Assembly: GCA_040954595.2 (NCBI GenBank)
Contig: CM082587.2
Span: 8,049,705 to 8,113,704, forward strand
DNA: 64,000 nt
Direction of reading: 5' to 3'
DNA from: Balanoglossus misakiensis
Taxonomy: Eukaryota > Animalia > Hemichordata
The position numbers and the translations under genes are program-made. Of the stretch, positions 7,430 through 44,019 are shown in pieces. The notes beneath the pieces are model-generated. The model was not told the DNA's origin, made no database searches, and saw nothing but the letters and a program-made list of their open reading frames with translations. How positions within the stretch are numbered: position 1 is the first letter of the stretch; each line of letters opens with the position of its first letter.

Positions 7430-7631
7430 AATAGAAAATCTATTGACGGCTAGTTCAATGGAAATCATCTGTATAATTCTATAGAAAATAATATTCTATT
7501 TATTTTCTGTTGAAAATTAATAGAAGTCATCTGTAGAATTCTATAGAAAATAAATTTCTATTGATTTTCTATTGAATTCTACACGTTTCTATAGAGGTCT
7601 ATAGAGTTCTATAGAACCTTTTTCGTAAGGG
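7430..7631 (-). mobile_element. Probable terminus of a CMC/EnSpm-like DNA transposon with subterminal repeats
   Basis: Multiple (T)CTATAGAAAAT repeats in both orientations ending in TTTTCGTAAGGG (reverse complement CCCTTACGAAAA); partner end not found. Confidence 0.45.
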
Positions 7632-10140
7632 ACATGGCCACGGACACTTCCGGCATAGTGACTGATCCGCTGCAATGGCAGAATGGAGACGTTTTGACCG
7701 GAACGGTTGATGTCGGGAGATTGGCATTCACTGATGAACCGGCAGCTGACAGGGTTGGTTGATGGCTAGTTGATACCAATTGGCATCCACCACAGATTGA
7801 TGCCATTTTACTAAGAAACACATGTTTATAATAATAAGTCTTTATTACAGACAACCAAGTTTCCATACCAGTTATTTTTAGACATTTGAAATGATACCAC
7901 TGACTACATTGGTCACATGCTACACCAGTCCTGACTGTGCGACTGCATACTCCACATGGCCATGGAGACTTCCGGCGCTTTGACTGAACTGTTGAAGTGT
8001 CAGAGTTGATACGTTTTGACCGTGTTGGTTGATGGCTGGTTGATGTCGGGAGATTGGCATCCACTGATGAACCGGCAGCTGCAGTTGAGCCCGCTTGTGG
8101 TGACCGAGGTGGGTCGGAGTGTGGTTGAGGATGTAGTGGATCATGGGTAGTTGCATTGGATGTTGTACATTGTACTTGAACTTCTTGAATTATTGCTGGG
8201 ATGACATGTTGAATGTAGAAAGAGTCCAGGTTCGCTTTAACTTTTGCCCAGAAAGATTCGTTGAATGTCACTGGAATGATGATCAGTCCTTTGGTAGTGA
8301 ACACAACACAGTCACAGAGATGAACACCTGTTTCTGCCATTTGTACTTGAATCTGTGTATAATATTGGTGACTCTGAGATAATACGTAATGTCCTTGATC
8401 GTTGGTCTTTATATACGGAATGTCAGTTCCTGCAGCTTCTTGTGGGGACCTCTCTCTTGCTGTGAATGGACACTTGCACTCCAGGATTCGGGGCTCACAA
8501 CAATCACATGATACATTTCTGTCGGCTGACGCTCCTACGTGTGCATTTCCTGGGGCAACTTTCAACCCACATCGCTTTACGACCAGATTTTCTGTGGTGC
8601 TGCGACATGGCTTCTGTGTACCTTTCTACTGCTTCATCCTCTTTGTCCCGCCCCCATCTGATGGCTGGTGGAGGATTGGTGTGATACCACTGACTGCATT
8701 GGTCATATGCTACACCTGCAGTCCTGACTGTGCGACTACATACATGTATTCCACATGGCCATGGAGACTTCCTACGCTTTGACTGAAGTGTCAGAGTTGA
8801 TACGTTTTGACCGTGTTGGTTGATGGCTAGCTGATGTCGGGAGATTGGCATTCTCTGATGAACTGGCAGCTGCAGTTGAGCCCGCTTGTGGTGAGGTGGG
8901 TCGGAGTGTGGTTGAGGTTGTAGAGAAAGGGTGAGGTTGTAGGGGTTCATGGGTAGTTGCACTGGATGTTGTAGCCTGAACTTCTTGAATTATTGCTGGG
9001 ATGACATGTTGAATGTAGAAAGAGTCCAGGTTCGCTTTAACTTTGCCCCAAAATGATATGTTAAATGTCACTGGAATGATACGTCCCTTTGTAGTGTACC
9101 GGTACACAACTAAGTCAGAGATGAACACCTAGCACTAATAGTACAGCATTTTGCATGAAAATAGCAAGGAACGGACACTTTCTCACTGTTCTGCGAGAAC
9201 CATGCAAGAACAGATCCTCCCAATGAACACATTGTCATCTCTTTTGATGGCCACCACAGATGATAATGTACAATGACTCTTCCATCAGCTGAGGCACCAA
9301 TGTGAGAGTCTCCTGGACGAACTGACAATTAAGCCACTGTCCGCTGTACAACTAAATTTTTATGGCATGATGACATTGACTATAATGTATCTCTCAACAG
9401 CTATGTCTTCATTCTGTCTTCCCATCGTATTGGTGGTGGTGGATTTTTGTCGTTTATTTTGGAGTGTCGATCCTTTCATTGCATTCATGATTGTTCTGCA
9501 GGGGGTGTCTGACCTCTTCTCTCCATGAAGCGGTGAACAGCATGTATCTTTGATGCTGTCAATCTGTGTTGTCTGCGCTGTCAGGCATCAGCGCTACTCT
9601 GTTGCAGGCCGATGTTGTTGAGACCGCTGATGCTTGTTCAGAATCCATACTCTGTCGGATATTGTCTCAGAAAGTTCGGGGTGTGTCATCAGGTCATTTT
9701 CAGCCATGCATCTAAAGCCGCCACTTCAGTTACTGTTTCTGGATTTCTGGTACTGGTTGCCTCTTCAGGGAATTCTTCACATTCATGCTGTCTCTACTTC
9801 AACCTCATCAGACAATGCATCATGGGTTATTCCTGGACTGGGGTCAGCAAGGGCGGGGATCAAATGCACAAAAGATAGTGTCCCACACTTCCTGAGGATC
9901 AATCTCTGGATCACTTGGCAGGGCAGGTCTGAAGGGTACTTAGTCTATCTTGCCATGTTTTGGATGGTGTAAATCAATTTCATCCACAGTACCAGGCTCA
10001 GTCTTCTCTGAGTAGAAGTCATTCCAGGCGCATGGGAGGTCTGTACATGTATTTGGTTGGTTAACACCCAATTCCGTTGCACTTACTATTTTAAATAGTA
10101 ATGCACCAATATGGGTACATGCTTCACCCAACCTGTAACA
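7609..10140 (-). mobile_element. SWIM zinc finger - YqaJ/lambda-exonuclease - PHD finger gene (ISL2EU-type accessory ORF), partly duplicated and pseudogenised
   Basis: LGEACTHIGALLFKI...CTDLPCAWN (SWIM region); RLTAS, GASAD, ILECKCP, HQYYTQIQVQM (YqaJ); CGVC...VACDQCSQWYHFKC (PHD); second frameshifted YqaJ-PHD copy at ~8685-9600. Confidence 0.82.
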
Positions 10141-11456: not shown

Positions 11457-13996
11457 GGCGGAAGCTATACGCACGGTGTTTTTTGGTAGATTTTTTTTGG
11501 AGAATTGAAATAGATCGGCTATGACTTACTACCGGGGTAGAAAATAAACAGCTCACTGATGATTACTCGGTTTTTAATTAAACTAGAAGTGAAGCTTTAT
11601 GACAGGATGTAGATGGAATGCGAATTGCTTAATTTGGGAATTAGCATTCTCAAGTTCGTATAAAATAAACACTGAGTCACTAATTGTTCGCTGGAGTTTA
11701 TGATAGTCGGAAGCAGTTGTGCAAACATTTCACAAATACTTTTACAAAGATGTCGCAAGAAAACCGTGCATGTTTTCAAAGAGTCACATAATTGCACCCC
11801 GACTTTTGATTGTTCTGCGCTAATCGGTATCAATTAACACCAAGTGTCCCAACTACGGAATTATTCAATAGACAGCGTTTTTCGCTGAACAAGACAACTT
11901 CGACCCGATCAGACGTGAATTTGTGTTGCTCCGATTCCGTGCCCAAAACAAAATATTGATTACGTTTTCACTGATGTAAAAATAAACCACACGCAACCAT
12001 ACACATGTATTTAATATATTTATTTAAAAACCTATGAACTAAGTAAAAAAGAACTTAACAAAAACATAATAAAATTAAAAGTCAGTTAAAAGTCATGAAA
12101 AATAAAAGTAAAAACAAAACAGCTGAATGATTCCTCGCCCTGACTACTCTACCCTAACCCTAAGAAAAACACAATAAAATTAAATGTCGCCCTGACTACT
12201 CTAATCCCCCCCTTGAAATTTATTTTTGAATTCGGCCAGCGCCTTCTCTGCCATTTTCTTCTTTTGGCTGTTTTTGGCTTTTTCTGTCAGGTACTCGTGG
12301 AAACTGTTCTTTATTCCAGTGGGCACAAAGTTAATCTATAATGTAATCTTTTGCCACGATGTGTGAACACAGTGAATATTCTGGTCCCAGTCCAGAAAAT
12401 TTAAAATAACGTCCAAATGATTGGTCAACCGTAATTCATGTTTATAGTCAAAATAGTCCTACCTGAGTACCCTTGTTTTTTCTCAACCATAAAAAAATGA
12501 AAGTAGGCGTTTTGGGCCGGCGTCAGCTTCCCGCTTACACTGGATACGTAATGCCTTTCCAGGCGGTCCTTCAGGTCGTCGTCATCTATATCGTCCAGTG
12601 TGTTTGGCACCTACAAATTGGTCAACCGTAATTCATGTTTATAGTCAAAATAGTCCTACCTGAGTAGCCTTTATTCTTGTCAATCATAAAAAAATGAAAA
12701 TATGCGTTTTGGGCAGGCGTCAACTTTCCTCCGCTCACGCTGGACACATAATGCCTTTCCAGGCGGTCCTTTAGGTCTTCGTCGTTGATGTCTTCCAATG
12801 TGTTTGGAACCTTGGGTGGTGCCGACGTGGAAGGCAGGATGGAGCGAAAGACATTGGAGAACTTCTTCTTTTTTGGGGGCTCCGGTATGTCGTCGTCGCT
12901 TTCCGGCGCTGCCGCAGCCCGTTTTGATGCCTGGGCCTGAAGTTGATCAATCAGGCCCTCCATCTTCTCCATTTTTTCCTCCATTTTCTGCATCCTTTCC
13001 TTCATTTCTTTCAATGTGTCCACAGTAAACTCTTTCAGAACGTCAAAGGACGTGGTCATTTCCATATGGAAATCGTCAAATTGGTCTTCTTGGTAAGCCT
13101 GAAATCAAAAATATATACCACCAAAATTAAAAAGTAACCTTCACAGAAAAAAAATATCAATGATATAACATTATTAATTTGTTTACTCACCATTGTAAGA
13201 ACGGATAAAACTGGTAGATAGTATAAAACTGGAAAAAAAAATTCTGAAATCTGAAATGGGAAAAACGGTAGTATTCAACAATTAATCTCTTTAAGTCTAC
13301 ACAAAATGTAGTAAACTATCGTTAACGCGAAAGTTGGCGCTGAAGAAATTCACACGTCATCATATCAGAGTTAAGTTTTTCTCAGTGGATTCTGAAGTCT
13401 TTCACGTCGCATCAAATGAGCATCTATGTACTGTAAAAGGTGAAGTTCAGGCGAACAATAAACTAAGCGACAGCCAAATAAATGCAAAAATCAAAGATCG
13501 CGTAATTTTTGTATCAGTTGCCCGGTTTACATGCAAGCTGAAAAATTCAAATGGTCAACAAAATACAAAAATAAGATGTAAGTCTTTACCTTGGATACAC
13601 CCATGCGCACAACAGAACGGATAGGAGCTGACTGAAGTCTCAACTGTAAACACTAACCCTAAGAATGCATGATGCCAATTTGCATGGCAAAGCCACAGGA
13701 AAATATTGTGTCCAATCATAGCACACGGAGTTGTTTACCATTCCAAAGTTAGACTAGCCCAATAGTCGGACGGCCCGTTTCCCGTTACGTAACAGCCTAA
13801 CCCTGACCTTTGCCCTGACCGTCCGCTTATAGTATGCCGAATTGTCCGTTTATATACGTTCGGCATACACGCGACGGTTTCACCAACGGCGGAAGCTATA
13901 CGCACAGTGTTTTTGGGGTAGATTTTTTTTGGGGGGGGGGGGGGGGGGGCGAGGAAGAATTGAAATAGATCGGGGTAGAAAATAAAGAGCTCACTG
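11457..13996. repeat. Pair of ~100-bp direct repeats (11457-11558 and 13888-13996) enclosing a 2.3-kb unit
   Basis: GGCGGAAGCTATACGCAC...AGAATTGAAATAGATCGG...GGGGTAGAAAATAAA.AGCTCACTG present in both copies. Confidence 0.85.
12622..13193 (-). CDS. Orphan two-exon gene, ~159 aa, coiled-coil plus NLS; C-terminal part tandemly duplicated at 12425-12612
   Basis: ATG|GTGAGT at 13193-13185; acceptor TTTCAG|GCT at 13099 gives MAYQEDQFDDFHMEMTTSF...; heptad MKERMQKMEEKMEKMEGLIDQLQ; PPKKKK. Confidence 0.6.
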
Positions 13997-13999
13997 TTG

Positions 14000-15573
14000 G
14001 ACAACCTCAACCGACAGCTCTTCTTTCTTGACCCGCAGCTCTTCATTTTCCTGACAAAGGTTATGGAGTTGTTATTGCTTTAAACTCTCTCCTTGTGACT
14101 TGATTGCTGTCGCTGACTGACATCTGTTGACACTTGCTGCATATTCAATACTCCTCCTGGTCAGAGGGTCGCTTCAGTTTCTTGCTAAAGTGCTGCAGCA
14201 CGGCCTTGGTGGAATGCCATTAATGTCTTGCCCACTTCCAGCTGGGTGTTGAATTGCATTTTGATGTTCTCCATCTTGTTGACATGTTCTCTGAATTGGC
14301 TGTGCAACTTTGTTGGCCAGACTGTCGGTAGAAATTCCTCTTTGTAGGTTACTGCCATGTTGTTGGGTTCTTGTACCGGTGAAAGCCAACTCAACTGCCA
14401 AATTATGGAAGCACAGACCTGTGCTCAGACATGAACAAACAGCTGGCTCAGGGTACAAAGTGATTATATGTACCGGTACTCTGTTGCTAATGACACTTCG
14501 CACCGTAAATGATTTCGTCTGAGGTGACAACCCATTTATGCAGCTGGTCTCCACAGCCAAATTTGCCAGGGACATTTGGGACATGCGGTAGTTTTGTCCT
14601 CTTTCAACTTTTCCGGCAGAGATTAGGAGATTCTCCCTTGGTGTGCTGAATAATACTCACAATTGGCCAAAAATTTGGAAGGTCAACATAACCAACGTTC
14701 AGCCTTCCTCATTGCTTCAAACTCTGGCTTCAGATCGTAAAGCCGAAACCTTTAGATAGTGGGAGATTTGTATCTTTAACAAAAAGTCCCAGTATTTCCT
14801 TGGTTCCTGAGGCCAGCTCCTTCTGTGCTATTATGATTAACAGGTGTGGTATTTTCCAGATAAAGTCGTCGTGGTGCAGTGCCAGTTCATAAAGACTGAA
14901 TATTTCATTGTTTGTTATTTTTCTTTCTTTTCTGGCTGCATGAACTGTGTTTGCAACCTGCTTCAGATCTCTTGGTCTGTGACCACTTGCTGGCATTCTT
15001 TCTTGAAATTGATCATCTTGAGCTTTCTGGCTCTGCTTTTGTTTGTAGATATTGATAGGCTCTCTACCACTGTCAGCTTTGCCTCTTTAATCATGATATC
15101 ACACTTTTACAGGAATGAATGGTTAGTTGTTTACTTGCCTATCACCATGTTTGGAATCGTTGGCAAGCGTGTGATCACCAAGATAATGCAGGAGATAGTA
15201 GAGCTGTCAACGTCTTTGGCCAATTTTATTGGCTTAGAAGCAATACACTGGCTGCTTGAAACCTGACAAAGAGTCCTTCTTCCCATTAGGGTCCTTGAGA
15301 TAATAGTACCTCTTTAAAATGGCAGCCAGTGCCCACCTCTTCCACTGTCACCTATGGACACCCATCGATATTGGTCAAATCTGGAGTCCATGGCCATTTC
15401 TTCTTTATTTCGTTTTTGACCTGTACATGTACACTCTTCCCCTTTGGTTTGACAGCGCCGGGCTCGTTCATGATGTTTTCGTTATCATTCTGAGAGCCAA
15501 GAATGTCCTCAACCTTGCTCAAGGAGAAGTCTCTCTGCCTATCATTAATAAAATGTGTATTTGTAAGTGACAT
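14000..15573 (-). mobile_element. Mutator/MULE-like transposase pseudogene with internal deletion
   Basis: HYLGD...KHGD...PF and PRDLKQVAN N-terminal motifs; C-terminal SWIM CSCLSTGLCFH; DDE core largely missing; frameshifts. Confidence 0.65.
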
Positions 15574-16669
15574 CTGAAAAAAAATTACAGTCGTGTTAAA
15601 TAAAACCTATTTATGGAAACATTTAGAAGCGTTTACAACATTTGCTTTTTTACTGTCGTTGCAAGGAGGTGCTGAATGTGGTGAACGGACAAATGAGACA
15701 ACACTCTGACATGAAGTTAGGGTGGCCGGTAGTGTGGTGTTATGGCAGCCGATGTAATGTTTGGGTATTTTGACCACATAGAATGTCACATTTGAGATCA
15801 TTTCGATAACCCACCTCGAATCTGGTCTTCTTCTGTTTGACGTTTTCGAGAACGTCGGTGTCCCCGAGACGACTCAAGAGGTTTCGTACTAGCGCTGGGG
15901 CATCCATGAACGTTGTGAGATGGATAGAAAGATCGCATCTCCCCCCACTTTCCACATGCCCCATCATGAAACCAAGGGCGAGATTTATTTTAAATTGATG
16001 GGTTTAGTGCCTATATATTATATCCAGATAACATATGATTGTAAATCTGTAAGGTGATATCCGCCTGCTGTTTGAAAATTGTACACATCCAGCATGGGAT
16101 TTCCTAAACGGTGGCAGGACCTGATGTGTAACAAGTTTTTCACTGTATGTTGGTGCAATGTCTCCATCGTCGACACTGTCCAACACAGGCTCAAAAAGAT
16201 CAACCGAAAGAACGCCGCTGTTGCTTGGCTGACCACCACCACCAATCTGTGGTTCTATGCTTCCTTCAGCAACATCATCATCATGTCATCATTGCCATCA
16301 TCCTCTCATGGTGACTATGACTATGTTTCTTCAGTGCCTTGAATGATTTGAAAACTCGTTTGCACACTTGCACATCTGAAAGACACTGAGACAGACAGCT
16401 TTTTGTGTATTTTCAAATGGCTGACATGATGTGATTTTCTGTTGAACACCATGTCACAGATAGTGCATTTGTATTGGGTGTCCTGACGATGATGTACATT
16501 CCATGTTGTCCTTTTGGGAGAAGGTGCGGTCACAACTTGGACACTGAAACTGTTGACTATAACGTATCATTTCATTTTCGCCACCACCGTTACCTGTACT
16601 TTTGACATCATGTACTTTCTTCTCGTGTCTTGCCAAGTTGTCCTTGCGTGTAAAAGTAAAAGGCTCTCT

Positions 16670-16915
16670 ACCTGATACAGGTGCGAGGCTGCCCAGGGTA
16701 TGAAACCAAACATTTCTCGAGCCTAATAACTGACGGAATATTCTTTCTAAGTCTCATGCGATATTGCCGGGTCCCGTTGAAAACAGAGGGCTCGTCGTTA
16801 AACACGCACTTCCGTGTCGCCAGCACCGTACCATACCCCGACAGAATGTGCTGGACAAAGTTATCGTCCAGCTCATTATCGATGGAAAGAGCCGTTAAAA
16901 TAAGTTGTCCCGTAC
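16670..16915 (-). mobile_element. Tx1/L1-type ORF1 (ZCCHC3-like gag) fragment
   Basis: ELDDNFVQHILSGYGTV...FNGTRQYRMRLRKNIPS...VSYPGQPRTC, truncated at the first Cys of the zinc knuckle. Confidence 0.75.
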
Positions 16916-17709
16916 GTAGTTTGAGATCTCCAGGTCGTGTCTTGCGAGATCAAAGACAACAATCTTCTCCTTATTATAAGCATATGAGACGTCCTTACTA
17001 GCAGTTGTATCGGCCCAAAATGCATTATGCACGCACCGTAACCCTTGAGCCTGTTTCCCTGTTCATCAACGATGAACATTATCTGGCGGTCGTTCTGATT
17101 CTGCAACTGCTCAAATGCTTCTCTCCGCCAAGGTCTTAAAGGCTTTCCTCTGGAATTTGGCCTTCTTTGCTTCCAGGGTCTTTCTCTGGACTATATTGTC
17201 TGCGAAGTGTTGCACTTTGTTCTGGTATAAATAATAATGCTCCCCATGCTTCTCTACAAGTTGATCCTCATCAAGGTCAGGGTTGCTAAGTCCTTGATCA
17301 ATCAATCAAAAACATTTATATGGCGCCAATATCCAGAGAACTGTTCAGTGGCGACCAACTGGACTAGGTCTCTTCTTTGGCCGGGTTTGATGGACGTACC
17401 CTATTCCTGGAAATCACCGCCTTTACTGCAGAATTTTCGGTTGTCTACCGGACTGCAACGGGCCACTTCGCTTTGGCGCTTCAGTTGCAAGTACTGCCCT
17501 TGTAGGTGAGGTACTTGCTTGTTCTCGCCGACTTCCTTGCCTATGATGAGATACTGCAGCTTGTTTAGGTTGGCTAGTATAGCGTCGTACTCTTCCTGGG
17601 TCCAGTTATTCAGCATAAAACAAAAGCTCTTCCCGCGAACGTCTGGTCTTCTTCGGTACTGGCCGTATTCTCTTGGGAAGCCATCTCGAGTTGTTGGTTC
17701 AGCGTTCAA
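16915..17709 (-). pseudogene. rep: Endogenous CRESS DNA virus replication initiator (HUH endonuclease + SF3 helicase), decayed
   Basis: Motif I FCFMLNN, motif II IGKEVGE...PHLQG, motif III NRKFCSKGGDFQE*G, GQRRDL, LRPW...QNDRQIMFIVDEQGNRLKG (degenerate Walker A), AYNKEKIVVFDLAR (Walker B); premature TAG at 17401-17403 and frameshifts. Confidence 0.92.
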
Positions 17710-17802
17710 TTAGATATGAAGTGGTGCGCTCACAACATTATGCGCGGTTGAGCGTACGTATAGTGTACATTGTAATGCAAATTAGAGGTCAAACGTGAGG
17801 TG

Positions 17803-17845
17803 GCCACAGGTCAGGTGTGGGCTACAATTACCCCACACCTGTGGC
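17803..17845 (+). promoter_or_regulatory. CRESS-type rolling-circle origin stem-loop
   Basis: Perfect 10-bp stem CAGGTGTGGG (17812-17821) / CCCACACCTG (17832-17841), extendable by GCCA/TGGC; loop CTACAATTAC with nonamer TACAATTAC (1 mismatch to NANTATTAC); AGGT repeats just upstream; ~100 bp from the rep start. Confidence 0.82.
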
Positions 17846-20519
17846 AAGGGCTAGCGTGACAATGCCCGCCGTGCCCATTGCCCCCGATTCTTTTGTTTAC
17901 GGCTTTACTATTGGTCTGTAGCCTATCCTTTGGAGTGTTGTCCTCTTCTTCCCGCTTGTCTGTATGCTTGTCATCTTCTAGTTCTAAGGTATCGTCACCG
18001 TCTTCGGCGCCAAACCACATAGGATCTCCCCCGTCCACGAAGTCTTGTTCGAAGTGCCATCGAATTTTCTTGGCATGTCCTTGCGTGTAAAAGTCTTACA
18101 GCAACTGGCACACGACAGGCAGTTTTCACCATGGACGCTGTTGATATGGCGACATAAATCACCTGGTCTGGTAAATGTGCGAGTACAGTGGGGGCACGTT
18201 GATCGGCCTGCATCATTTTGCTCACCCTCTTCATGGACACCCAGGCGATTGGTGGTCTCACGAAGGTCCTGCAGATAAAATAGAGGATACATGTATACAC
18301 AATATCGGAAAAATTTGAACAAAAACATGGCGAAAAGTAACAACTCACCTCAGATAATGAGTACTTTGCCAAAGATGAAGACATAGGCTGTAGAGCTGAA
18401 AGAATACAAAATTATTCTATAGTTATACATACAATTTGTGTACATACAATTTTCCTGTCCATCTACTGGTGAATGTTTTAAAGGTAAACTAGTCTGCTTG
18501 GTGGACTTAGAAATGCTTAAATAATTGCACAGAGTTCTACGAAAACAAATTTAAAATTAATAATTGGATAAGAAGAGTTCAATACTTAAACACACTTCTT
18601 GTATATTTGATTATGCAAAGAAATGACACAGACACATGTGAGTTTGGCTTAAATGTGCCCGGGGGGGGGGGGGATGAGCTCACCTCTGACTGAGTGTTGT
18701 GGCAGGTCTGGGATGACACATGGTACTCAAGGAGAGCCAGCCACCACAGAGGCACCAGCCCAGACGTCATGGCAGTTGCCCTCCAAGACACAAGCCACCT
18801 GTTTGGCTTGGGCTGTGGAAGGTGTGCGTGTTAACCAGCTGGTATCTGCATGCACTGTAGTGACAACCCCAAGCTCCTTAATTTGATTTACTTCATAACA
18901 GCACGAAACAGTATACATAGGTGTGGGTGGGTGGGAGAAGATTGCTGCTTACTCGTCACTGCCACGTGGTAAAAGGAGTGAGTGGTCTCTGTCAGGCCTA
19001 CAGGAGACTTCGGTAACAGTAAATAAATACACTTGATGAAAGTTCTTGTCCGTGTCACTTCCCACATTAACACTATCTATACTAATGTATAATCGTAATA
19101 TTAAAATTACCCTTGTGTGTTAATAACTGAACTGGCAACTTTAACATTGTACACACATGACCATTGGCAAAGGGTATGATTGCTTCTCGTGCACAGTTGT
19201 CAACTCCAAACACCCTGTAATATGAATTTATAGCACATGTGAAAGATTTCAAGAATGATCAATGTGTGTCATAAATTTATCTGTGTGTATCATCTTAGTC
19301 TAGAATCTATCCGTTCGTAGTCGCATTCACCCTACTACCGTCTTGGAACGCCTAACCAAAATCTAGTAAGGCCATAAAAATGGTAATTTGAATGTGAATA
19401 GTCTCCAACTGAGCATTAATTCTTGACGATTTTTGTCTGACACTACAATTGTTTAAAAGAATACAATTACGTTGGCATCGTCGAAAGTAGATATCACTGT
19501 GCTATACCTACGTGTACAAGAAATTAGGCCAGAGGGTATATGGGTGGGTTTTTTGTAGGCACATTAAGAAAACACATCATTGTAACAGTATACGCATGAC
19601 CACTGGTGTATTCAGCTGATTGCTGATCAATTATTTTCGCCGCAGAGAAAATTCAAATGAGTATCCTGGTTGTATCGCATCAACTAATCAGAGTTATGTT
19701 TCAAACACCTAACACGTGTCCGCAAAAATAGGAATGTACACCGGCTATTTACAGACTGTCCAGTCAGCTGATGTCAAATGAATGAAGGAAGGAAGGAATG
19801 TATGAATGAATGAACGCATCTACAACGCACGCAAAAAGGAATGAAATAATACATGGGTGGATTCTTCACAAGTTGACATACGTGGCGTCTCTTCATAAAC
19901 CGTGTAAACATGTCAGACATACCGTATGTTAGTTATGAGTGAAGTGATCATTGTAAATGGAAAGATATTATTGATATTTGCGTATGTTTACCAATGCAGA
20001 GATTTCAGTGCCATGTAGCCCAACATTTGAAAGCATCTGACGTATTTTTATCCTGTGACACGTTTCCAAAGCCCCACTCTACCATCATTGTTCTGGTAGA
20101 GAGACGTGGCATGGATATGGTGGGAGTCATTATTTTTCACGGATGGTTTATGCCGTCAGTGGGATTCTGTCCAACGCCCACGATGTTCTGGAATTTCTCT
20201 TAGTAACGCAAAGTTATTCTGTGCAAAACGTACATTGGTGTTTCTTTTCTGTTAAAGAATCATGCATCAATTCAAAAGGTGACGTTTTCTCCGGAAAGAT
20301 TGGTCGTATAAAATGATTTTTCAATTACAGAATCTTTGACACAGCTTAGGAAGCATATCACACATAAAGCCAATATCTGAAATGGTGACTTCACTTGTGC
20401 GTGGTGCCCACATGGTTTTACCCCATAAATTAAAAGTGAAAAATTGGGACATAATGTATCTCAGTGGGCGATGATCTTAGTCCGATCAGGCGTTCCCTAA
20501 TTAGATAAAGACAGGACAT

Positions 20520-23500: not shown

Positions 23501-26500
23501 ACATAAGACAACTTACAAGTCACAGAAACAGAGTGATCCATTAGTTTCATGACTTGATTATAATTATGCTTGGTGTGAATCCTGCTTGCTGATTGGCAAG
23601 AGCCAGGGTTTATATTCTCGACAAAAAAAATTGACCAAGAACAGTGAATAATTATAAAAAATGGAACACATACAAGAGATCACACCTTACTGGATGTGGG
23701 ATAACATGGATAAAGTCGTGCGACTTTAGAAATTCTATAACACTTCGCTCGGTGATTATTTCCCGCCAAATATACTAATTTTCACGTGAGAGGTCCTGCA
23801 CCCAAATACCCTCTGGCAGCCGTTTAACCTCTAAATATAACGTTTAGCCAATAGTCAGTCTAAGAAAAAAGACTCCTTGAAAAATCTTTCACGATATTTA
23901 TTTCATCATATTGGGCTGAACGGATCAGCAAATTTCCACAGAAAATGACGGGCAGCTACAGGCAGTAATTAGTAGGACCGCAAATAAAGTTTTGATTTCA
24001 AGGATTGGAAAGTGGGGAAACAATTGCCTCTAATTGCAGACGTTGTCGCCGCCTACAAAATCCGTATCTTTGAAACAAAATTTTATGGATAAGATATTCA
24101 TATATTATTTCTATTATCGCTTACAGCTTTCTCCGTTCGCCCAAATCAGTGTTCAAACTTCAGCAAGTCCGGCCGCATGTGAGACGAGCGTATGTTTGTT
24201 CGTAAGAAATGTACTCCAGTACTTCCGGTTAACTCAGCAGAGCAGGTCGACTTAGCATAGCAGAGCAGGTTGACAGCAGAGCAGGTATAGTTAGCAGAGC
24301 AGTGTCGGTATGGGCCACCGTAGTTAATACATGCTGACATTAATACCAAACTTCTGCAGATTATCAAACGTTTGCACCAGAAGAAACTTCTATTATCTTC
24401 TATTAATAACAATTGATGATCTATTTTCTTTCTTTCTAGATTGTTATTGTACTTGTAAGTATTACTCTGCATATTTTTTTTCAATTTCGAAAGTTTTCTG
24501 TGTCCATGTATGCACATAAAATAACTGGCACATCGTGCGATAGCAGCCGACGCTGGACTTAGAGATGGGTCAAGAGATGATGATTTAATTAGACACACAA
24601 TGTAAATTGCTCACTCAGTTAATACAAATTTCAACACATGATCAATTTTTAAACGAGGTGAACCTGGTATTAGCTATGTTTCATCTGCTCAGTCTCTACA
24701 GATCCGTGGTATGACGGAAAGTATTATTGTGCACAAAATAACTTTTAAATATATGCAATGTATGTATGGGAATTCTAAATGACAAAGTATAATTGAATAT
24801 AAATGAAAGTTGTATCCCTTTGTTTCATTATACCCTGTAGTATATTATAAAGTAGGGTAATGTGATAAACCATTGAATTGATTATTATTACTTTCAGTCA
24901 ACAAAGTTTTGCTTGGTTGGTTGGTTCACTATGTAATTTAGTTTCAATTCAACTTTGTTTTTATAATCAGCTGAAGAAGGCGACATTCGCTTGGTAGGCG
25001 GTTCGTCCGAGACAGAAGGCCGCGTCGAAATCTATCATCAAAATGAGTGGGGTACAGTTTGCGATGACGCCTTCGAAAACATTGATGCAGTCGTGGTGTG
25101 TCGTCAACTTGGCTACACGTAAGCTTATTTTTTATTTATATAGCACAGAAATTGACATCATCTGAATATAACGAGAACATTTGAGGAGTGGTTTATTTTC
25201 TTCGTTCTTACGCCTTGTTTCTGTCTTTCAATTGGCTTGCTGGCAAATGTATCATACAGGACCGGCAGCCTCAGACGAGATGACACTCACCTTTTAAGTA
25301 CACGGCCACTGTCAGACACGTTATGTTTCTTTTGATTTACAGGGGAGGTAGTAGTCTGCCAAGTGCATCTTTTGGACAAGGAACGGGCCAAATATGGCTA
25401 GATGATATTGGATGTAGCGGGAGTGAGAGCAGCCTAAGTGACTGTACACATCCTGAATGGGGAACTCACAACTGCCAGCATAGTGAAGATGTCGGAGTTT
25501 CATGTGAAGGTATTTACTTTTTGTTAACAATATTTTTGAAGTAATATCATCTTGTGTAACAGGCAGTAATGCAATGTGGTAACTTTATAGCTTATTCGTA
25601 TTTACTTTTTACAAAATGCTAATGAACCATAACAAGTATCTATAACGTCTTCTTCTCTTAAATTATTTTTATTTACAGTAGGCAGTCCATCAACAGGTAA
25701 GATATCCAAATTGAATGTGTAGCATTTCAATGTGTCATGGTCTGAACGAAACAGCGTCAGCAAAGAAGTTGCGAATTGTTCAAATGAATGTGATATTTTC
25801 ATCAAAAATTCAAGCCTATTTAAAAAAAAAGCTTTTTCCAGATCTTATTATATAAGTTAAATTAATCATTAATCCTTTTGGTCATCAAAGTTTTTTTTCG
25901 GTGGTGTACTGTTGTTTAGTTACAATTCAGTTTTCAATTGGCTTTTTAAAATCAGCTGAAGAAGGCGACATTCGTTTGGTGGGAGGTTCGTCCGAGACAG
26001 AAGGCCGCGTCGAAATCTATCATCAATATCAGTGGGGTACAGTTTGTGATGACTACTTTGAAGACATTGATGCAGTTGTGGTGTGTCGTCAACTTGGCTA
26101 CACGTAAGCTTGTTTTTTATTTGAATAGCACAGAAATTGACATCTTCTTAATATAACGAGAACATTAGAGAAGTAGTTTATTTTCTATGTTCTTGCCCCT
26201 TGTTTTCTGTCTTTTTATTAAAAATTTTCCCAGGTGAATACCTTTGGTGAAACCTGTTAATAATACACAGACAATCATGAAAATATACGTGCAACCTGCG
26301 GAGACAATGTTAACGTGACATTTGTCAATTTTGATTAAACTCGGTAGAATATAACTTTGTCTACGATGACATATGATTCAGATGGCGTATTTCCATCTGT
26401 ACAGTGAGACCCTGCCAAACGATATCGAATTAACTTGAAAAGATGATACATCATATTTGCTAAGGTGTGAATTGTAATGTAACAAACGTTATGATCAATG

Positions 26501-29500
26501 ATGTATATTTAGAAGTTATAAACAGCTAACCGCAGTCGCAGACAGGATTAGACTCTCGTTTTAAGTACACACAGAAATGTCACAGCCACTGTCAGACACG
26601 TTATGTCCATTTTATTTACAGGGGAGGTAGTAGTCTGTCAAGTGCATATTTTGGACAAGGATCGGGCCAAATATGGCTAGATGATATTGGATGTAGCGGG
26701 AGTGAGAGCAGCCTAAGTGACTGTACACATCCTGAATGGGGAACTCACAACTGCCAGCATAGTGAAGATGTCGGAGTTTCATGTGAAGGTATTTAGAGTT
26801 TGTTTACCGGTATAATAGTTTTGAAGTAATATCATCTTGTGTATCAGGCGATAATGCAATGTGGTAACTTTATAGCTTATTCTTATTTACTTTTTACAAA
26901 ATGCTAATGAACCATAAATAGTATTTTATAACGTCTTCTTCTCTTAAATTATTTTTATTTACAGTAGGCAGTCCGTCAACAGGTAAGACAATTCTTCATA
27001 TATGTTTTATCCAAATTGATTGTGTGGCATTTCCATGTTTTATGTTCTGAACGAAACAGTGTCCGCAAAAAAGTTGCGAATTTTTTGTAAATTTACGTTA
27101 ATTAATGTAATATTTTCATCAAAAATACGAGCCTATTTAAAAACAAGAACATTTCCATGATCTTATTATATAAGTTAAATTGATTATGATTACTTTCGGT
27201 CTTTGAAGTTTTGCTTGGTTGGTGTACTGTGTTATTTAGATTCAATTCAGTTTTCAATTGGCTTTTTAAAATCAGCTGAAGAAGGCGACATTCGCTTGGT
27301 GGGAGGTTCTTCCGAGACAGAAGGCCGCGTCGAAATCTATCATCAATATCAGTGGGGTACAGTTTGTGATGACGCCTTTGAAAACATTGATGCAGTCGTG
27401 GTGTGTCGTCAACTTGGCTACACGTAAGCTTATTTTGTATTTGAATAGCACAGAAATTGGCATTTGAGAAGTAGTTTATTTTCTTAGTTCTTACGCCTTG
27501 TTTTCTTTCCTGAATGAATTGAATACCTTTGGTGAAAACTTGTTAATAATACACAAACAAATATGAAAATATACTGACACTAGTAAGACAATACTAACCA
27601 CATGAAATTGGTCAATTTGAATCAAACTTGTTACAATATAACTTTTATCATTGAAGACGAAGTCCTAACAAAATCATTCAGTCCGTGTGTTTCCAACACT
27701 ACAGGGAGATACTGGCAAAAATATCGAAATAACTTTAAAATATGATACATCTCATTGTTTGCCATGGGTTATAAAAATAAACAAACATATTGCTCAATAT
27801 GTGTATTGTATAGCAGTTAAAATGTGTGTATACATATGTAGGCTTGCCATAGCAACTGTGTCATACAAGAAGCACAGTCGCAGACGAGATGACACTCACC
27901 TTTTAATCAAACACAGAAATGTCACAGCCACTGTCAGACACTTTAAGTTCATTTTACAGGGGAGGTAGTAGTCTGTCAAGTGCATCTTTCGGACAAGGAA
28001 CGGGCCAAATATGGCTAGATGATATTGGATGTAGCGGGAGTGAGAGCAGCCTAAGTGACTGTACACATCCTGAATGGGGAACTCACAACTGTCAGCATAG
28101 TGTAGATGTCGGAGTTTCATGTGAAGGTATTTAGTTTTTGTTGATAATAGTTTTGAAGTAATATCTTGTGCAACAGGCGATAATGCAATGTGGTAACTTT
28201 ATAGCTTATTCTTATTTACTTTTTACAAAATGCTAATGAACCATAACGAGTATTTTATAACGTCTTCTCCTCTTAAATTATTTTTATTTACAGTAGGCAG
28301 TCCATCATCAGGTAAGATATCCAAATTGATTGTGTGGCATTTCAATGTGTCATGGTCTGAACGAAACAGCGTCAGCAACGAAGTTGCGAATTGTTCAAAT
28401 GAATGTGATATTTTCATCAAAAATTCAAGCCTATTTTAAAAAAAAGCTTTTTCCAGATCGTATTATATAAGTTAAATTAATCATTAATCCTTTTGGTCAT
28501 CGAAGTTTTTTTTTGGTGGTGTACTGTTGTTTAGTTACAATTCAGTTTTCAATTGGCTTTTTAAAATCAGCTGAAGAAGGCGACATTCGTTTGGTGGGAG
28601 GTTCGTCCGAGACAGAAGGCCGCGTCGAAATCTATCATCAATATCAGTGGGGTACAGTTTGCGATGACTTCTTTGAAGACATTGATGCAGTTGTGGTGTG
28701 TCGTCAACTTGGCTACACGTAAGCTTATTTTTTATTTGAATAGCACACAAATTGACATTTGAGAAGAAGTATATTTTCTTAGTTCTTACACCTTGTTTTC
28801 TTTCCTGAATGAATACCTTTGGTGAAAACTTGTTAATAACACACAAACAATTATGAAAATATACTGACACTAGTGAAACAATACTAACCACATGAAATTG
28901 GTCAATTTGAATTAATTTTGTTACAATATAACTTTTATCATTGAAGACATAAGTCCTAACGCAATAATTCAGTTGGCATGTTTCCAACACAGGGAGATAC
29001 TGGCAAACAATATCAAAATAACTTGAAAATAGGATACATCTCATTGTTTGCCATGGTTAATAAAAATATACAAACGTATTGCTCAATATGTGTATTGTAT
29101 AGCAGTTAAAATGTGTGTATACATATACACATGTAGGCTTGCCATAGCAACTGTGTCATACAAGAAGCACAGTCGCAGACGGGATGAGACTCGCCTTTTA
29201 AGTACACACAGAAATGTCACAGCCACTGTCAGACACGTTATGTTCATTTTATTTACAGGGGAGGTAGTAGTCTGTCAAGTGCATCTTTTGGACAAGGAAC
29301 GGGCCAAATATGGCTAGATGTTATTGGATGTAGCGGTAGTGAGAGCAGCCTAAGTGACTGTACACATCCTGAATGGGGAACTCACAACTGCCAGCATAGT
29401 GAAGATGTCGGAGTTTCATGTGAAGGTATTTAGTTTTTGTTAACAATAGTTTTGAAGTAATATTTTGTGCAACAGGCGATAATGCAATGAGGTAACTTTA

Positions 29501-32500
29501 CAGCGTATTCTTATTTACTTTTTACAAAATGCTAATGAACCATAACGAGTATTTTATAACGTCTTCTTCTCTTAAATTTTGATTTACATTAGGCAGTAAT
29601 ATCTTGTGCAACAGGCGATAATGCAATGAGGTAACTTTACAGCGTATTCTTATTTACTTTTTACAAAATGCTAATGAACCATAACGAGTATTTTATGACG
29701 TCTTCTTCTCTTAAATTATTTTTATTTACAGTAGGCAGTCCATCAACAGGTAAGATATCCAAATTGATTGTGTGGCATTTCAATGTGTCATGGTCTGAAC
29801 GAAACAGCGTCAGCAACGAAGTTGCGAATTGTTCAAATGAATGTGATATTTTCATCAAAAATTCAAGCCTATTTAAAAAAAAGCTTTTTCCAGATCTTAT
29901 TATATAAGTTAAATTAATCATTAATCCTTTTGGTCATCGAAGTTTTTTTCGGTGGTGTACTGTTGTTTAGTTACAATTCAGTTTTCAATTGGCTTTTTAA
30001 AATCAGCTGAAGAAGGCGACATTCGTTTGGTGGGAGGTTCGTCCGAGACAGAAGGCCGCGTCGAAATCTATCATCAAAATGAGTGGGGTACAGTTTGTGA
30101 TGACTACTTTGAAGACATTGATGCAGTTGTGGTGTGTCGTCAACTTGGCTACACGTAAGCTTATTTTTTATTTGAATAGCACAGAAATTGACATCATCTG
30201 AATATAACGAGAACATTTGAGAACTAGTTTTTTTTCTTAGTTCTTACGCCTTGTTTCTGTCTTTTTATTACTACTTTCCTAAACGAATACCTTTGGTGAA
30301 AACTTGTTAATAATAGACAGACAATTATGATAATATACAGACACTAGCGAGACACTACTAACCCCATGACATTTGTTAACTTCGATTAAACTCTTTACAA
30401 TATAACTTTTGTCTTTGATAACATATGCACTAACAAAATTATTCGGTTTGCATGTTTCCAACTGTACAGGGAGACACTCTCAAACTATATCCAAATTACA
30501 TGAAAATATGATACATCTCATTGTTTGCCATGGTATGCATTTTAATATATATAAACAAACACATTGGTCAATGATGTATATTGTATAGGAGTTGAAATTT
30601 GTGCATACCTAGGCTTTCTGTAACAACTGTGTCATACAGGAACCATAGTATCAGACGGGATAAGACTCGCCTTCTAAGTACACACAGAAATGTCACAGCC
30701 ACTGTCAGACACGTTATGTTCATTTTATTTACAGGGGAGGTAGTAGTCTGTCAAGTGCATATTTTGGACAAGGATCGGGCCAAATATGGCTAGATGATAT
30801 TGGATGTAGCGGGAGTGAGAGCAGCCTAAGTGACTGTACACATCCTGAATGGGGAACTCACAACTGCCAGCATAGTGAAGATGTCGGAGTTTCATGTGAA
30901 GGTATTTAATTTTTGTTAACAATATTTTTGAAATGATATCATCTTGTGTAATAGGCGATACTGCAATGTGATAACCGTAAGGCGTATTCGTATTTACTTT
31001 TTACGAAATTCTAATGCACCATGATGAGTATTTTCTAACGCAATCTTCTCTTAAATTTTGATTTACATTAGGCAGTCCGTCGACAGGTAATATATCTTCA
31101 TATATGTTCTATCCAAATTGACTGTGTGGCATTTTCTAAAGGAAACAAGCCAGAAAAAAAGCTGGAATTTTTGGAAATTCATGTCGATGAATGTAATATT
31201 TCCATCAAAAATACGAGCCTATTTAAAAAACAACCGCATTTCCATGATCTTATTACATAAGTTAAATTGATCATGATTACTTTCAGTCAACGAAGTTTTG
31301 CTTGGTTGGTGTACTGTATCATTTGTTTTCAACTAAGCTGTGTTTTTATAATCAGCTGAAGAAGGCGACATTCGCTTGGTAGGCGGTTCGTTCGAGACAG
31401 AAGGCCGCGTCGAAATCTATCATCAAAATGAGTGGGGTACAGTTTGTGATGACTACTTTGAAGACATTGATGCAGTCGTGGTGTGTCGTCAACTTGGCTA
31501 CACGTAAGCTTATTTTGTATTTGAATAGCACAGAAATTGACATCTTCTTAATATAACGAGAACATAAGAGAAGTAGTTTATTTTCTATATTCTTGCCCCT
31601 TGTTTTCAGTCTTTTTATTAAAAATGTTCCCAGATGAATACCTTTGGTGAAACCTGTTAATAATACACAGACAATCATGAAAATATACGTGCACTAGCGG
31701 AGACAATGTTAACGTGACATTTGTCAACTTTGATTAAACTCGGTAGAATATAACTTTGTCTTCGATGACGTATGATTCAGATGGCGTATTTCCATCTGTA
31801 CAGTGAGACCCTGCCAAACGATATCGAATTAACTTGAAAAGATGATACATCATATTTGCTAAGGTGTGAATTGTAATGTAACAAACGTTATGATCAATGA
31901 TGTATATTTAGAAGTTATAAACAGCTAACCGCAGTTGCAGACGAGATGACACTCACGTTTTAAGTACACACACAAAGGTCATAGCCACTGTCAGACACGT
32001 TCCGTTAATTTTTCAGGGGAGGCAGTTTTCGGTCAAGTGCATATTTCGGACAAGGATCGGGCCAAATATGGCTAGATGATATTGGCTGTATAGGATGTGA
32101 GAGCAGCCTAAGTGACTGTACACATCCTGAATGGGGAACTCACAACTGCCAGCATAGTGAAGATGTCGGAGTTTCATGTGAAGGTATATACTTTCTGTTT
32201 TAATAGTTTTGAAATGATATATTGTTGGTAATAATTCTGTGTGCTGACTTTATAACTTATTCTTATTTACTTTTTAACAAAATGCTAATAAAAGGTATTG
32301 TTTTTAAATTCTGTTGATTTATAGGAGGCAGCCCGTAAACAGGTGAGATTAATCTTATTAATAAGCTAAGTATAGTAAACATTTAATTTGAATTTACAAT
32401 ATTATTTATGCCCAAAGACAGCATTTCTAGCCAGTTTTAGCAATCAAAGTTTAACTTAAAATAAATATCCAACTTGAGCATATTGCCAGCGTAAGTTAAT

Positions 32501-37500: not shown

Positions 37501-40500
37501 GAAAAACATAGAACATGCAAAGCCTGTTGTGAGGTATATGATCCCAACCATGCATTCCTCCCAGAAATGTCAACTTATATATGCTGTTTAGTTCCACATT
37601 TCCAGAATATTAGGCCTTATAAACGATGTATGCAATATGTAAGTAATTCGTGTATACCGGTAGACATACCCAGCTAATTTAATTCCAACCACATGGCTGT
37701 ATGGGTGTAGGCGTAAGTGCCTTACCTTTCGCCATCTTCAGTGCCAATACAGTCACACCATCTTTACCCGCGAAGTCACGTGCCTCAGCTTTGAAGACTG
37801 CGCCGAATGAGCCTTCGCCGATAAGACCCCCCTTACTGACGTACTCTCGCGGACGTACTTTCGAGTGTCTACACCTTTTAAACAGTACAACAACAACGAT
37901 GGCGATGCAGGCGACGATCAAAGCGCTGATGGTAGAAACAGCAATTGTGGAAACATAGGATGATGTCGACTTCACTGTCATGGAAAATAATCCAAAAAAT
38001 GTGTCCATCAGGTATTTAAATATTATATTCCGTAACATTGTGAACATTTCTTAAAGCACCGTTTGGCGATTATTAGCCTAAAATGTATTCCATTGATCAA
38101 AAGGTACAACCGCAGGCAAATTGGCACTTTGCATTCATCGAATTAAACGGCGTCGCACCATTCCATCTTTCATTCTCCCTGTTTCCAACATTGGAGTATT
38201 GGCAACATCCCCATTAATGTGATAGTGACGAAAGTCACCGATTCGACATTCTTAATTGCAACAAAAACTTGTTTTGCAACATGCAACAACTGTACAACCA
38301 CAACAACCATCACCAAGTAAAGTGCACACGCCCTCCCTCCTGCACATCAAATCTTCGAATGTTAAACAATGAATACCACTGCAATCAAAATCTTGCAAAA
38401 TGACTTACACTTGACCGTGACCTCGACTGAGGGACTGCCAGTCTCCTGTTCACTTCCGTCGTAAAACTGGGTCACTGACCTACAACTATAATCACCGTCC
38501 ATCCACAACTCAGCGTTTTCGATTGTGAAGACATGTGACGTTGCATCTGCGACCTTTACTACGAATGTGCCGCTGGTGTTGGTCTGACACACGCTAAGCT
38601 GGTAAGGATCTGGATTTCCATCACGGGCCGTACACTCTATCACCAAGTCAGAACCTTCGACCACTTGCTCTCGTTGTACCAGGATTGAAACGTCTGATGC
38701 ATCTGTACACGGATAGAGAGAACCGACGGCAATCAAAATCCTTATGGTAATCAACTGTGCCTAAAATCCGTCTGCCTGTCTGTCTTTGTTTGTTTATGTA
38801 TATACGTCTGTACGTGTCTGTCTGTCTGCCTGCCTGCGTGCCTGCCTGTCTGTCTGTCTGTATGTACGTGTACGCACGCACGTACGTATGTATGTATTTA
38901 TGTATGTATCTATGTAGCTATGTATATCTATGTAGCCATGTATATCTATGCATCTATGTATGTATTAGACCGCTGGGTGGTATGTAGGTTTTTTTTCAAA
39001 TACTGTGGCTAGGCTGTACTTACATTCCACAATCAATTCAAGACTCTTCTCGGCCACCATAGTGGAATTATCATACAGACGGTTAGTCGCCACGCACATA
39101 AAGGAGCCGGCATCTGTTTTGGCGGCGTTTCCAATGGTGTAACTCGCTCCATCGTAAATTTCCTGCCCGTCCCTAAACCATTCCACGTCGGAAGCCGTTG
39201 GATTGGCATCTACCAGACATTCTAGGGTGACTAGCTCACCTTCTTTGGCGCGTACTTCATCACTGGCAAACATGATTTCTGGACCGTCTGTAATGTAGAC
39301 AGATACAACTTTGGCCTTAAAAACCCTTTACGGTTGTTTATACCATTTTCAGGAATGGGAAGCCAAGAAAACGTATAATATCGAAATCGTATATTAATTC
39401 CTTGTGACAAGCAAGACTAGTGTAGTTATAAGATATCCAGTAGTGCCGAGATTGTAATTGTTGAAATAGTAAAGAGAACATTACATTCACACAAGTAATA
39501 TAATTTATTAAATTAAACGAAAAATGTGACTTACACTGTACATTAATTACAATTTCTTTTTTACAGGTCAATATCGATGACTGTTCGTCTGTGAGGGACG
39601 GGTGTTCTAATCTGCAATCAAACCGGGCACCATTCTCGGTCTTGTCGAGGGTTGTGGTGAGGTCGTTCATCATTCCGGTCACTCTCTTCTCCTCAACGCC
39701 GTTCTTATACCAAACCAAATCGCCAAATGATGACAACATACACACAAGGGTGATCTCTTCGTCTTCAATCGTCGTGTAGCCAGGTTGTACGCTGCACTCT
39801 GGCCCATTTACTACGTGGGCAAATTCAACAGATGGTTCGTAAATTTAGAAATAGTGATTGTGGTGTGTGGTGTTACTGGTATGTGTTTGCATTATTTACC
39901 CTTTTCTCCGGTTTGCTTGAAATATGACTATTATATGTGAAAGTTAGCACCAATATACGTTCAATGCGGGCGATCAATAAGCATTACGTGAGGTCTTGCT
40001 GCAGGAAGTGAAGGAACATATAATTCACTTCATCACTCATGAAAATAACGTTTGCACAGGTTGCCAGACAATGCATGTTACTGTTGTTGTATTATACTAC
40101 CCTAAATTATTTTCAAACGTTACTTTTTACTAATAATTAATCTCCGTGCTTAAAATTGTACATATACCACTTACTTTTCATAAATTCCACGACGAAAATG
40201 TGCCGTCAAAATGTCGTATACTTACCAATTACAGAAAGGTTGGCTTTGGCGAATATTGATGAATCGAAGAACTCCTGACATGCGTAGATGTCCGACAGCT
40301 CGGGTGTCGCCCTCAATACCTTCAAGTGAAACTCGTACTGGGTGTCGTCCCCGACAATTTCGTAGACGTCGCTGTCGTCCACCGTTCGATCCAGGGATAT
40401 CCTGGTGCTTCCTTTCATCCACACAACCGCCGGGGGCGCACTCACGAAAGAACAGTTGAGCTGGACCGTATCGTTGGTGAGGGCAATGGTATCGCTTGGT

Positions 40501-43500: not shown

Positions 43501-44019
43501 AGCGTTATCTACTTACAATAACCTATCGGAAAACAACCGCATATCACAGGGAAAATGGATGTTATGTGGGCAGATCATGAAAATAATGTTGATAACCCTT
43601 CCCTACTGTCACCATGAATAGACAATACAATTAAAAATATTTTGCAAGTCCCTCACACCCAGCATCAAAACTCCACCCAGTGTCTGCTCTAAATTAAACG
43701 AATAACTTAAAGTTTGAAATAAGTCGATATAACACTTCCTTATTTCTATCATGGTTGGATTATACAGTGTCCATCCATTTTTAGTTCATTAGTAACTCAG
43801 AAATCACTTGATATTTATGTCAGAATTTGCCACTTCATTTCAGTTTATATCCAGCCATACTTCCCAATTCCAAATTTCATGACGTGAACTAAACTTAATC
43901 AGTGACACAATTGCAACTGAAAGACTTCATGCTTGGTGTGACTTACCTGCTGGTTGAGCAAACAAGACAATGATGCACATAAGACGTACGGACACGGAGG
44001 GTGGTAATTTTTCCATCAT
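34590..44019 (-). CDS. Ig-domain receptor tyrosine kinase-like protein (FGFR/RET-related fold), probable pseudokinase
   Basis: Signal exon 44019-43947 [24 protein letters not shown]; eight Ig exons 43310-38410; TM plus IGEGSFGAV...ALK exon ~37978-37725; [11 protein letters not shown] exon 36400-36284; RWMAPE...SDVWSFG; PYPGM; CW...RPSF; last exon [19 protein letters not shown]. Confidence 0.9.
38765..38965. repeat. Compound microsatellite (GTCT/GCCT/GTAT)n
   Basis: Direct reading; partial copy at ~41650-41745. Confidence 0.85.
38900..43730. repeat. Recent intragenic tandem duplication of the Ig exon block (~2.75-kb offset)
   Basis: ~38920-40890 is nearly identical to ~41690-43730, including introns; extra first-type Ig exon at 41180-41487. 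Confidence 0.9.

Follow-up and report, generated by a model that had tools for sequence, protein, structure and literature searches.

Genome layouts of CRESS-DNA viruses are denoted by type numbers, which tell whether the origin lies opposite rep. Layouts with the origin opposite rep are given by type for echinoderm-associated viruses (PMC5113903). Endogenous relatives are also on record: Rep-like elements have been described in many animals, some of them inside host genes or transposons (Liu 2011, PMC3198968), and four vertebrate cases are described as keeping both rep and cap, with carnivore elements fused to LINE-1 (Dennis 2019, PMC6372831). The isopod elements are described as having no obvious target-site duplications (Theze 2014, PMC4231630), and whole CRESS genomes are reported as integrated in the protists Entamoeba and Giardia (Kinsella 2020, PMC7493932). 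In the titles and abstract openings of openly accessible papers that we searched, there was no report of the element described here or of a target-site-duplicated CRESS/LINE chimera.

The present locus lies in a 64-kb stretch of animal DNA (hereafter, the window), which holds exon-sized Ig, SH3, REJ, HYR and C-type lectin pieces. It has an HUH domain, remnants of an SF3 helicase and a stem-loop next to rep, is joined to host DNA and inherited, and is a further CRESS endogenous viral element whose insertion history is well resolved (Table 1). A 19-bp direct repeat bounds an insert of 1,418 bp, which reads on the minus strand as 230 nt (18075-17846), the origin, rep (17685 to ~16916) and ~258 nt of LINE-like sequence. 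The preliminary description had seen the origin and rep and had overlooked the target-site duplication and the LINE-like piece.

Table 1. Features of the insertion and its flanks (positions in the window).
Feature	Position	Strand	Remarks
Second half of interrupted C2H2 finger	16610..16638	-	host flank
Left copy of perfect 19-bp direct repeat	16639..16657		100% identity; host zinc-finger coding sequence
Likely non-LTR retrotransposon ORF1 fragment	16658..16915	-	RRM-like stretch into zinc knuckle; cut inside ORF1
Broken rep	16916..17685	-	HUH endonuclease part 17404-17646, central part, Walker A region, Walker B
Short high-copy host repeat	17297..17353		depth spike, loose ends at both edges
Four AGGT hexamers	17785..17817	+	third and fourth form the stem bulge and 5-prime arm
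Origin hairpin	17803..17845	+	perfect stem 17812-17821 / 17832-17841; extended stem with 5-nt bulge
Nonamer TACAATTAC	17823..17831	+	A at position -4 (17826)
Three TGCCC copies	17863..17883	+	3-prime of stem; 2.6% of random window stretches
Possible decayed capsid fragment	17972..18073	+	gap-free 34-residue match, 10 identities, to residues 101-134 of the L085 capsid-like ORF
Right copy of 19-bp direct repeat	18076..18094		spanned by contig X2 record 16 (17800-18181)
Host C2H2 fingers	18095..18196	-	one whole finger and first half of the interrupted one; Pfam zf-C2H2 25.8 bits, cut-off 25.2

The element is joined to host DNA and inherited. Two runs (X1 and X2) of one sample (S1), both from one study, contain the stretch; no RNA data set was listed as containing it, which has no bearing on expression. 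Among the contigs, X1 record 1 and X2 record 9 cross the left junction, X2 record 14 crosses from rep into the LINE-like piece, and X2 record 16 crosses the right junction. The S1 contigs differ by ~1-3% from the window and show signs of two alleles, so S1 is probably another individual. One of them, X1 record 7 (17800-17928), has a single difference, at 17885, and therefore carries the window nonamer. Contig depth, which is only a rough guide, is flat and single-locus-like over rep (64-138 in X1, 31-35 in X2).

At the junctions, the host flanks together with one copy of the repeat make a complete C-x2-C-x12-H-x4-H finger, which follows another whole finger. Because one copy restores the finger, we read the 19-bp repeat as a target-site duplication. 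No empty-site joint was among the sample contigs listed, which are short and say nothing of fixation, so the pre-insertion state is deduced from the restored reading frame. The finger flank is multicopy: X1 depth is 1,600-1,740 at 18062-18185, whereas rep has 64-138. At 12400-16600 and 18095-18900 (minus strand) the frames are decayed, contain cysteine/histidine clusters, have high contig depth and gave no Pfam hit; in these we recognise what we take to be a SWIM-like motif. The DNA that received the insertion was probably an old transposon.

Other features of the window were recorded in passing. At 7609-8989 (minus strand), YqaJ recombinase and PHD finger frames lie in a partly duplicated stretch that is likely a decayed DNA transposon or virus-like element. 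A tandem array of ~1.35-kb units with 78-89% identity occupies 24873-32292, Ig-domain exons are duplicated locally at 38362-43731 (minus strand), and AT-rich minisatellite blocks at 58319-60753 form a large inverted repeat. The REJ, HYR and C-type lectin exons at 46709-54194 (minus strand) suggest a polycystin/REJ-like gene.

The rep gene is broken by a stop codon, frameshifts, an internal deletion relative to its relatives and a repeat insertion. Similarity to the best relative (297 residues) ends near residue 246, and the last ~50 helicase residues are lost. The HUH domain is present (Pfam Viral_Rep E 1.6e-5, 25.5 bits, just below the cut-off of 26), and the N-terminal piece matched 1,526 proteins at E<=0.001, the best at 5e-15. 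What is left of the SF3 helicase is a Walker A region and a Walker B that match relatives in separate frames; a homologue search with the Walker B piece found none, which is weak evidence, and a scan of viral contigs with the window rep piece as a single protein gave no matches. The inserted repeat, 57 nt long with a short tetranucleotide tail, entered rep after integration and resembles the 3-prime end of a LINE or SINE.

We searched 1.84 billion representatives with the rep N-terminal piece and took the best 150 of the 1,526 matches; eleven relatives that also matched the central and helicase pieces were aligned, and at least 79 viral and at least 79 metagenome loci were fetched. Among the listed loci, L084 and L085 scored best against the window rep pieces (164 and 163 bits, the next 120). 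The collections searched contained no close relative, Rep identity reaching ~42-47% at best among the listed matches. In a FastTree phylogeny of 122 rows, with SH-like support only, the window rep grouped with L084, P0035 and P0066 (support 98), inside a wider group of 21 rows (support 85) in which 5 of 7 DNA loci have an antisense origin. Seventeen rows with WxDGY, which we take as the label of the circovirus helicase type, formed a separate side of a branch with support 100, the window rep being of the other helicase type. The relatives' profile matched circovirus Rep structures with 112 bits against 64 for two Rep chains of 94-95 residues, presumably nanovirus chains. Two further observations concern the collections themselves. 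OP947160.1 (Pinkberry virus LS07-2018-MD00, 19.6 kb, from a phage collection) encodes a full-length Rep of the window type with 31% identity, matched in two places. L007, L051 and L088 have Rep matches at two positions and may be tandem or chimeric assemblies.

The stretch between rep and the left repeat is likely a fragment of a LINE ORF1. Its boundary with rep is approximate (16895-16925). The first Atlas hit (0.93) was a cluster of which 18% of the members carry RRM_1, PRE_C2HC and zf-CCHC came lower in the list, and neither Pfam nor PDB gave support. We tentatively assign it to the ORF1 proteins of non-LTR retrotransposons. Its depth is raised and several variant contigs exist. The ORF1-like frame reaches the repeat, and the junction there is without poly(A) or a LINE 3-prime end; of the marks of a LINE product, the insert has the target-site duplication (19 bp, perfect) and lacks the LINE 3-prime end and poly(A).

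On the other side of the origin, a weak capsid match was the best among 403 ORFs (E 0.013). Of 300 shuffles, 14 scored as well against some ORF and none as well against the L085 ORF, and we lean towards reading 17972-18073 as a putative capsid remnant. Further homologues of the capsid-like ORF for building a profile were not found. An acidic frame of 87 codons is open on the opposite (minus) strand of the same region; a homologue search and Atlas were both empty for it, which is weak evidence. A unisense layout with this acidic frame as the capsid end was considered and set aside, as the frame had no homologue and the nearest relatives are ambisense.

The origin itself is well preserved in outline. 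The 10-bp perfect stem (17812-17821 with 17832-17841) closes a 10-nt loop, CTACAATTAC (17822-17831), and a DNA fold gives 14 bp across 17803-17845 with the 5-nt bulge, which confirms the stem originally claimed. The nonamer is on the plus strand and rep on the minus strand, as had also been proposed, and L084 and L085 share this arrangement: both carry TAGTATTAC in a 10-11 bp stem on the strand opposite rep and just upstream of it, with a divergent capsid-like ORF. The comparison with relatives that the preliminary description had called for, made here with the two best-scoring ones, agrees with it on both rep strand and origin strand. Across the 158 listed loci, 125 had a hairpin, 119 of them distinct, with 89 on the rep strand and 30 opposite; the stems are 7-14 bp long. 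The window hairpin lies 177 nt from rep motif I; in the 25 listed relatives whose origin is antisense, this distance is 4-264 nt. The hairpin agrees with the relatives in position, strand, stem length (10 bp) and closing bases, supporting its identification as a CRESS-virus origin hairpin. The likeness to nanovirus and alphasatellite origins that had been pointed out proved generic: TTAC is followed by C in 114 of the 119 listed hairpins, so CRESS origins in general show it, and the genes of nanovirids are virion-sense. At 17775-17782, on the way from the hairpin to the start of rep, lies ATGCAAAT, which we take to be an octamer motif and possibly part of a viral promoter.

By analogy with known origins, the nick site would fall between 17829 and 17830 (position numbering around the nick as in PMC7826260). 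The window loop has A at -4 and A at +1, so the Watson-Crick -4/+1 pair that accompanies a functional NANTATTAC-type nonamer cannot form. T stands at -4 in all 119 distinct hairpins of the listed relatives; when hairpins with a different base at -4 were looked for specifically, they turned up in 4 of 158 listed loci, all with 7-bp stems and beside a canonical hairpin. T-4 and T-1 are described as the most preferred positions, T-4 pairing with A+1, in a source that also calls Reps promiscuous (PMC7826260). A second source states that Reps need the -4/+1 pair: with T-4A, kfast of the duck circovirus Rep fell from 7.42 to 0.047 per min in Mn (~160-fold, in vitro) and from 1.67 to <0.01 per min in Mg (PMC9973303). 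According to the same source, 23 of 21,566 predicted origins (0.11%) are without the pair, some through error, and one case, a smacovirus origin with A in both places, is reported as genuine. The suggestion that an intact Rep might still nick the site in trans is therefore unlikely to hold, since with A in both positions the pair on which Reps depend is lost. By this analogy, the origin is predicted to be a very poor Rep substrate, and efficient nicking by the cognate Rep would be quite improbable. The A at -4 probably arose after integration. Because the key base predicts near-absent cutting, the hairpin is likely an inherited molecular fossil and not a live element; a well-kept stem can thus conceal an origin predicted to be dead. 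A minus-strand nick register, which keeps the -4/+1 pair, was rejected because +2 would be G where Reps bury C, and because stem closure in the relatives fits the plus strand instead.

The four AGGT repeats named in the preliminary description are present in the hexamers given, starting at 17786, 17798, 17808 and 17813. Four copies of one 4-mer in 43 nt, a stretch picked after the repeats had been seen, occur in 1.4% of random window stretches (5% at 61 nt). Alleles differ by a 9-nt indel at 17791 that overlaps the second hexamer. Among the 112 listed relatives with enough flank, none has four copies of a 4-mer on the 5-prime side and 4 have three copies (9.5% at random). On the 3-prime side of the stem, at least two copies of a 5-mer occur in 82 of the 112 (45% at random) and at least three in 12 (1.5% at random). 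The proposed reading of the AGGT repeats as iterons is thus doubtful, because the relatives' repeats lie 3-prime, two of the copies make up the stem and bulge, and one overlaps the indel; we consider it rather unlikely that these candidates are true iterons. The TGCCC copies are alternative iteron candidates, or may be the start of the decayed capsid gene. The block common to the second contig described below takes in the AGGT copies and not the TGCCC copies, which favours the earlier reading.

Taken together, these data make the following history probable: the likely disabled origin of an unclassified CRESS-DNA virus sits in a 1,418-bp composite insertion that likely patched a 19-nt staggered germline break and has since decayed. 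In the virus, Rep would have nicked the plus strand in the hairpin loop, and the genome was probably ambisense, with rep and cap divergent. A 19-nt staggered chromosome break in the animal germline would then likely have been repaired in a single event that filled it with viral DNA and LINE-derived sequence, the break probably being made or patched by non-LTR retrotransposon machinery. Such machinery is suggested by the 19-nt duplication and by a LINE-like piece oriented as rep. The insert would afterwards have decayed, the A at -4 probably arising in that period. That intergenic viral DNA was integrated, as had been suspected, is borne out: the origin and 230 nt beyond it lie within the insertion, so the integrant exceeds a rep mRNA. 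As a rep mRNA is not expected to include these parts, viral DNA or else a long read-through transcript probably served as template. On balance, within this explanation, we prefer capture of viral replicative DNA by retrotransposon machinery to its alternative, the end-joining of two DNA scraps. The process was not ordinary retrotransposition, since the LINE-like piece stops inside ORF1 without a tail; an ORF1-internal LINE end and a missing poly(A) fit poorly with ordinary target-primed reverse transcription and count against our explanation. Rep itself would not have made the junctions: the nick site coincides with neither of them, lying ~245 nt inward of the right one and ~1,170 nt away from the left one, so Rep strand transfer fails to explain the ends.

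The main rival to single-event patching is that the virus had inserted earlier at another site, next to a LINE or within one, and that a 1.4-kb piece of that composite was later copied here by templated break repair or retrotransposition, the origin still being a fossil. In favour of such a secondary copy, the LINE piece is cut inside ORF1, carnivore circovirus elements fused to LINE-1 are described as later copied (PMC6372831), and the sample contains a second origin-like contig. That contig, however, matches the origin block only and then differs, and the flat, single-locus-like depth of rep (64-138 in X1, 31-35 in X2) shows no near-identical donor; we consider a secondary copy unlikely.

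The second origin-like contig, X1 record 6, is 230 nt long at a depth of 250; it aligns to 17777-17845 with 7 differences, beyond which its right flank is unlike the window. Its depth exceeds that of the locus, and summed depth is up only over the bins 17752-17875, with a left edge at ~17761 computed from bin means. The contig may represent a further fossil left by a related virus, a common region that is shared, or virus in free form. These facts bear on whether TACAATTAC is the natural origin of the virus lineage, the ~85-nt block 17761-17845 being a common region of several genome components, satellites or non-autonomous copies that a cognate Rep could still nick in trans. For this speak the shared block followed by divergence, the depth rise confined to 17752-17875, a block that takes in the AGGT repeats and leaves out the TGCCC repeats, the natural non-pairing origin reported in PMC9973303, and the placing of iterons on the rep side in geminiviruses and on both sides in nanovirids (PMC10653810). 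Nevertheless, the -4/+1 pair is absent from just 0.11% of predicted origins (PMC9973303), and among the listed relatives no hairpin of 119 lacks T at -4, the 4 exceptions in 158 loci all being 7-bp stems beside a canonical hairpin. Moreover, scans of viral contigs with two patterns with A at -4 found 4 and at least 120 stretches, and none of the 124 loci listed was Rep-linked (tblastn, six Reps); a pattern for the right arm of the stem gave 0 matches in viral contigs. A naturally deviant common region is thus very unlikely. We give a low probability to a broader picture, in which a small genomic family of CRESS origin modules (~85 nt of AGGT repeats and hairpin, with differing flanks) carries a natural non-canonical nonamer from a multi-component or satellite-bearing animal virus, the locus being a LINE-assisted capture at base resolution.

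It is extremely improbable that the hairpin arose by chance or belongs to a small host repeat lying beside a rep fossil: the bare 9-mer is at chance level (2 in the window; at least 2 in 35 of 100 shuffles), its sequence falls outside the four origin motifs compiled in 10.1101/2020.02.27.967703 (NANTANTAN, NAKWRTTAC, TAWWDHWAN and TRAKATTRC), folding energy is modest (z -1.5 and -2.0) and an extra copy of the origin block exists in the sample, but a stem-enclosed nonamer with at most one mismatch from NANTATTAC occurs once in the 64-kb window whether the stem cut-off is 7, 8 or 10 bp, and one with a 10-bp stem in 3 of 150 shuffled windows before adjacency to rep is required, while Rfam had 0 matches over 16000-19000 and position, strand, stem length and closing bases fit the relatives. 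Hardly any weight falls, likewise, on Rep-driven rolling-circle strand transfer by a Replitron- or Helitron-like transposon: an HUH Rep and a hairpin do lie within one element, and Replitron-1 insertions are described as able to have variable target-site duplications (PMC10288648), but the nick site is at neither junction, the direct repeats are host coding sequence and not element termini, rep is single-locus by depth, and the SF3 helicase remnants found here are described as absent from Replitrons (PMC10288648).

The locus can now be set against the known systems. Its closest counterparts, L084 (2,467 nt, circular; protein P0008) and L085, have a Rep of the same ~295-aa type with a nanovirus-like Walker B. 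They differ from it in their Rep sequence (~42-47% identity), in having the canonical TAGTATTAC, in showing no similarity in intergenic DNA, and in the distance from origin to motif I, which is 47-65 nt against 177 nt in the window. Members of the Nanoviridae and Alphasatellitidae resemble the locus in a stem-loop whose loop carries TTAC on its 3-prime side, and in a helicase with D-hydrophobic-x-R, which we take to be the Walker B motif. In contrast to nanovirid ORFs, which are virion-sense and one per circle (PMC10653810), the window rep is antisense to the nonamer, so the virion-sense Rep on a one-ORF circle that marks these families is not seen. Replitrons likewise bring a CRESS-related HUH domain, with a hairpin and direct repeats nearby, into eukaryotic genomes; they are described as having no helicase and their own terminal repeats (PMC10288648), whereas the window has helicase remnants and repeats of host sequence. 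As in the Entamoeba and Giardia integrations, non-coding viral DNA came in with rep, but those are near-whole genomes assumed to be Rep-mediated (PMC7493932), and the window holds a partial genome in an animal, with junctions off the nick site. The long duplication, the LINE-like scrap and the position of the junctions favour break repair or retrotransposon help over Rep-mediated insertion here.

Like the endogenous CRESS and circovirus-like elements of animals, the locus is a decayed rep fossil in an animal genome. Unlike the endogenous circovirus elements, it derives from a virus that was not a circovirus by helicase type. Since endogenous CRESS elements with intergenic DNA and LINE fusions have already been published, we regard the locus as a worked example and not as a new system. 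It links a metagenomic CRESS lineage (L084, P0035, P0066) with an animal host that is most likely an invertebrate. Compared with the animal elements cited above, it has both junctions resolved by a perfect 19-bp duplication and unites origin, rep and a LINE-like piece in one bounded insert, an unusually clean record of CRESS DNA entering the germline.
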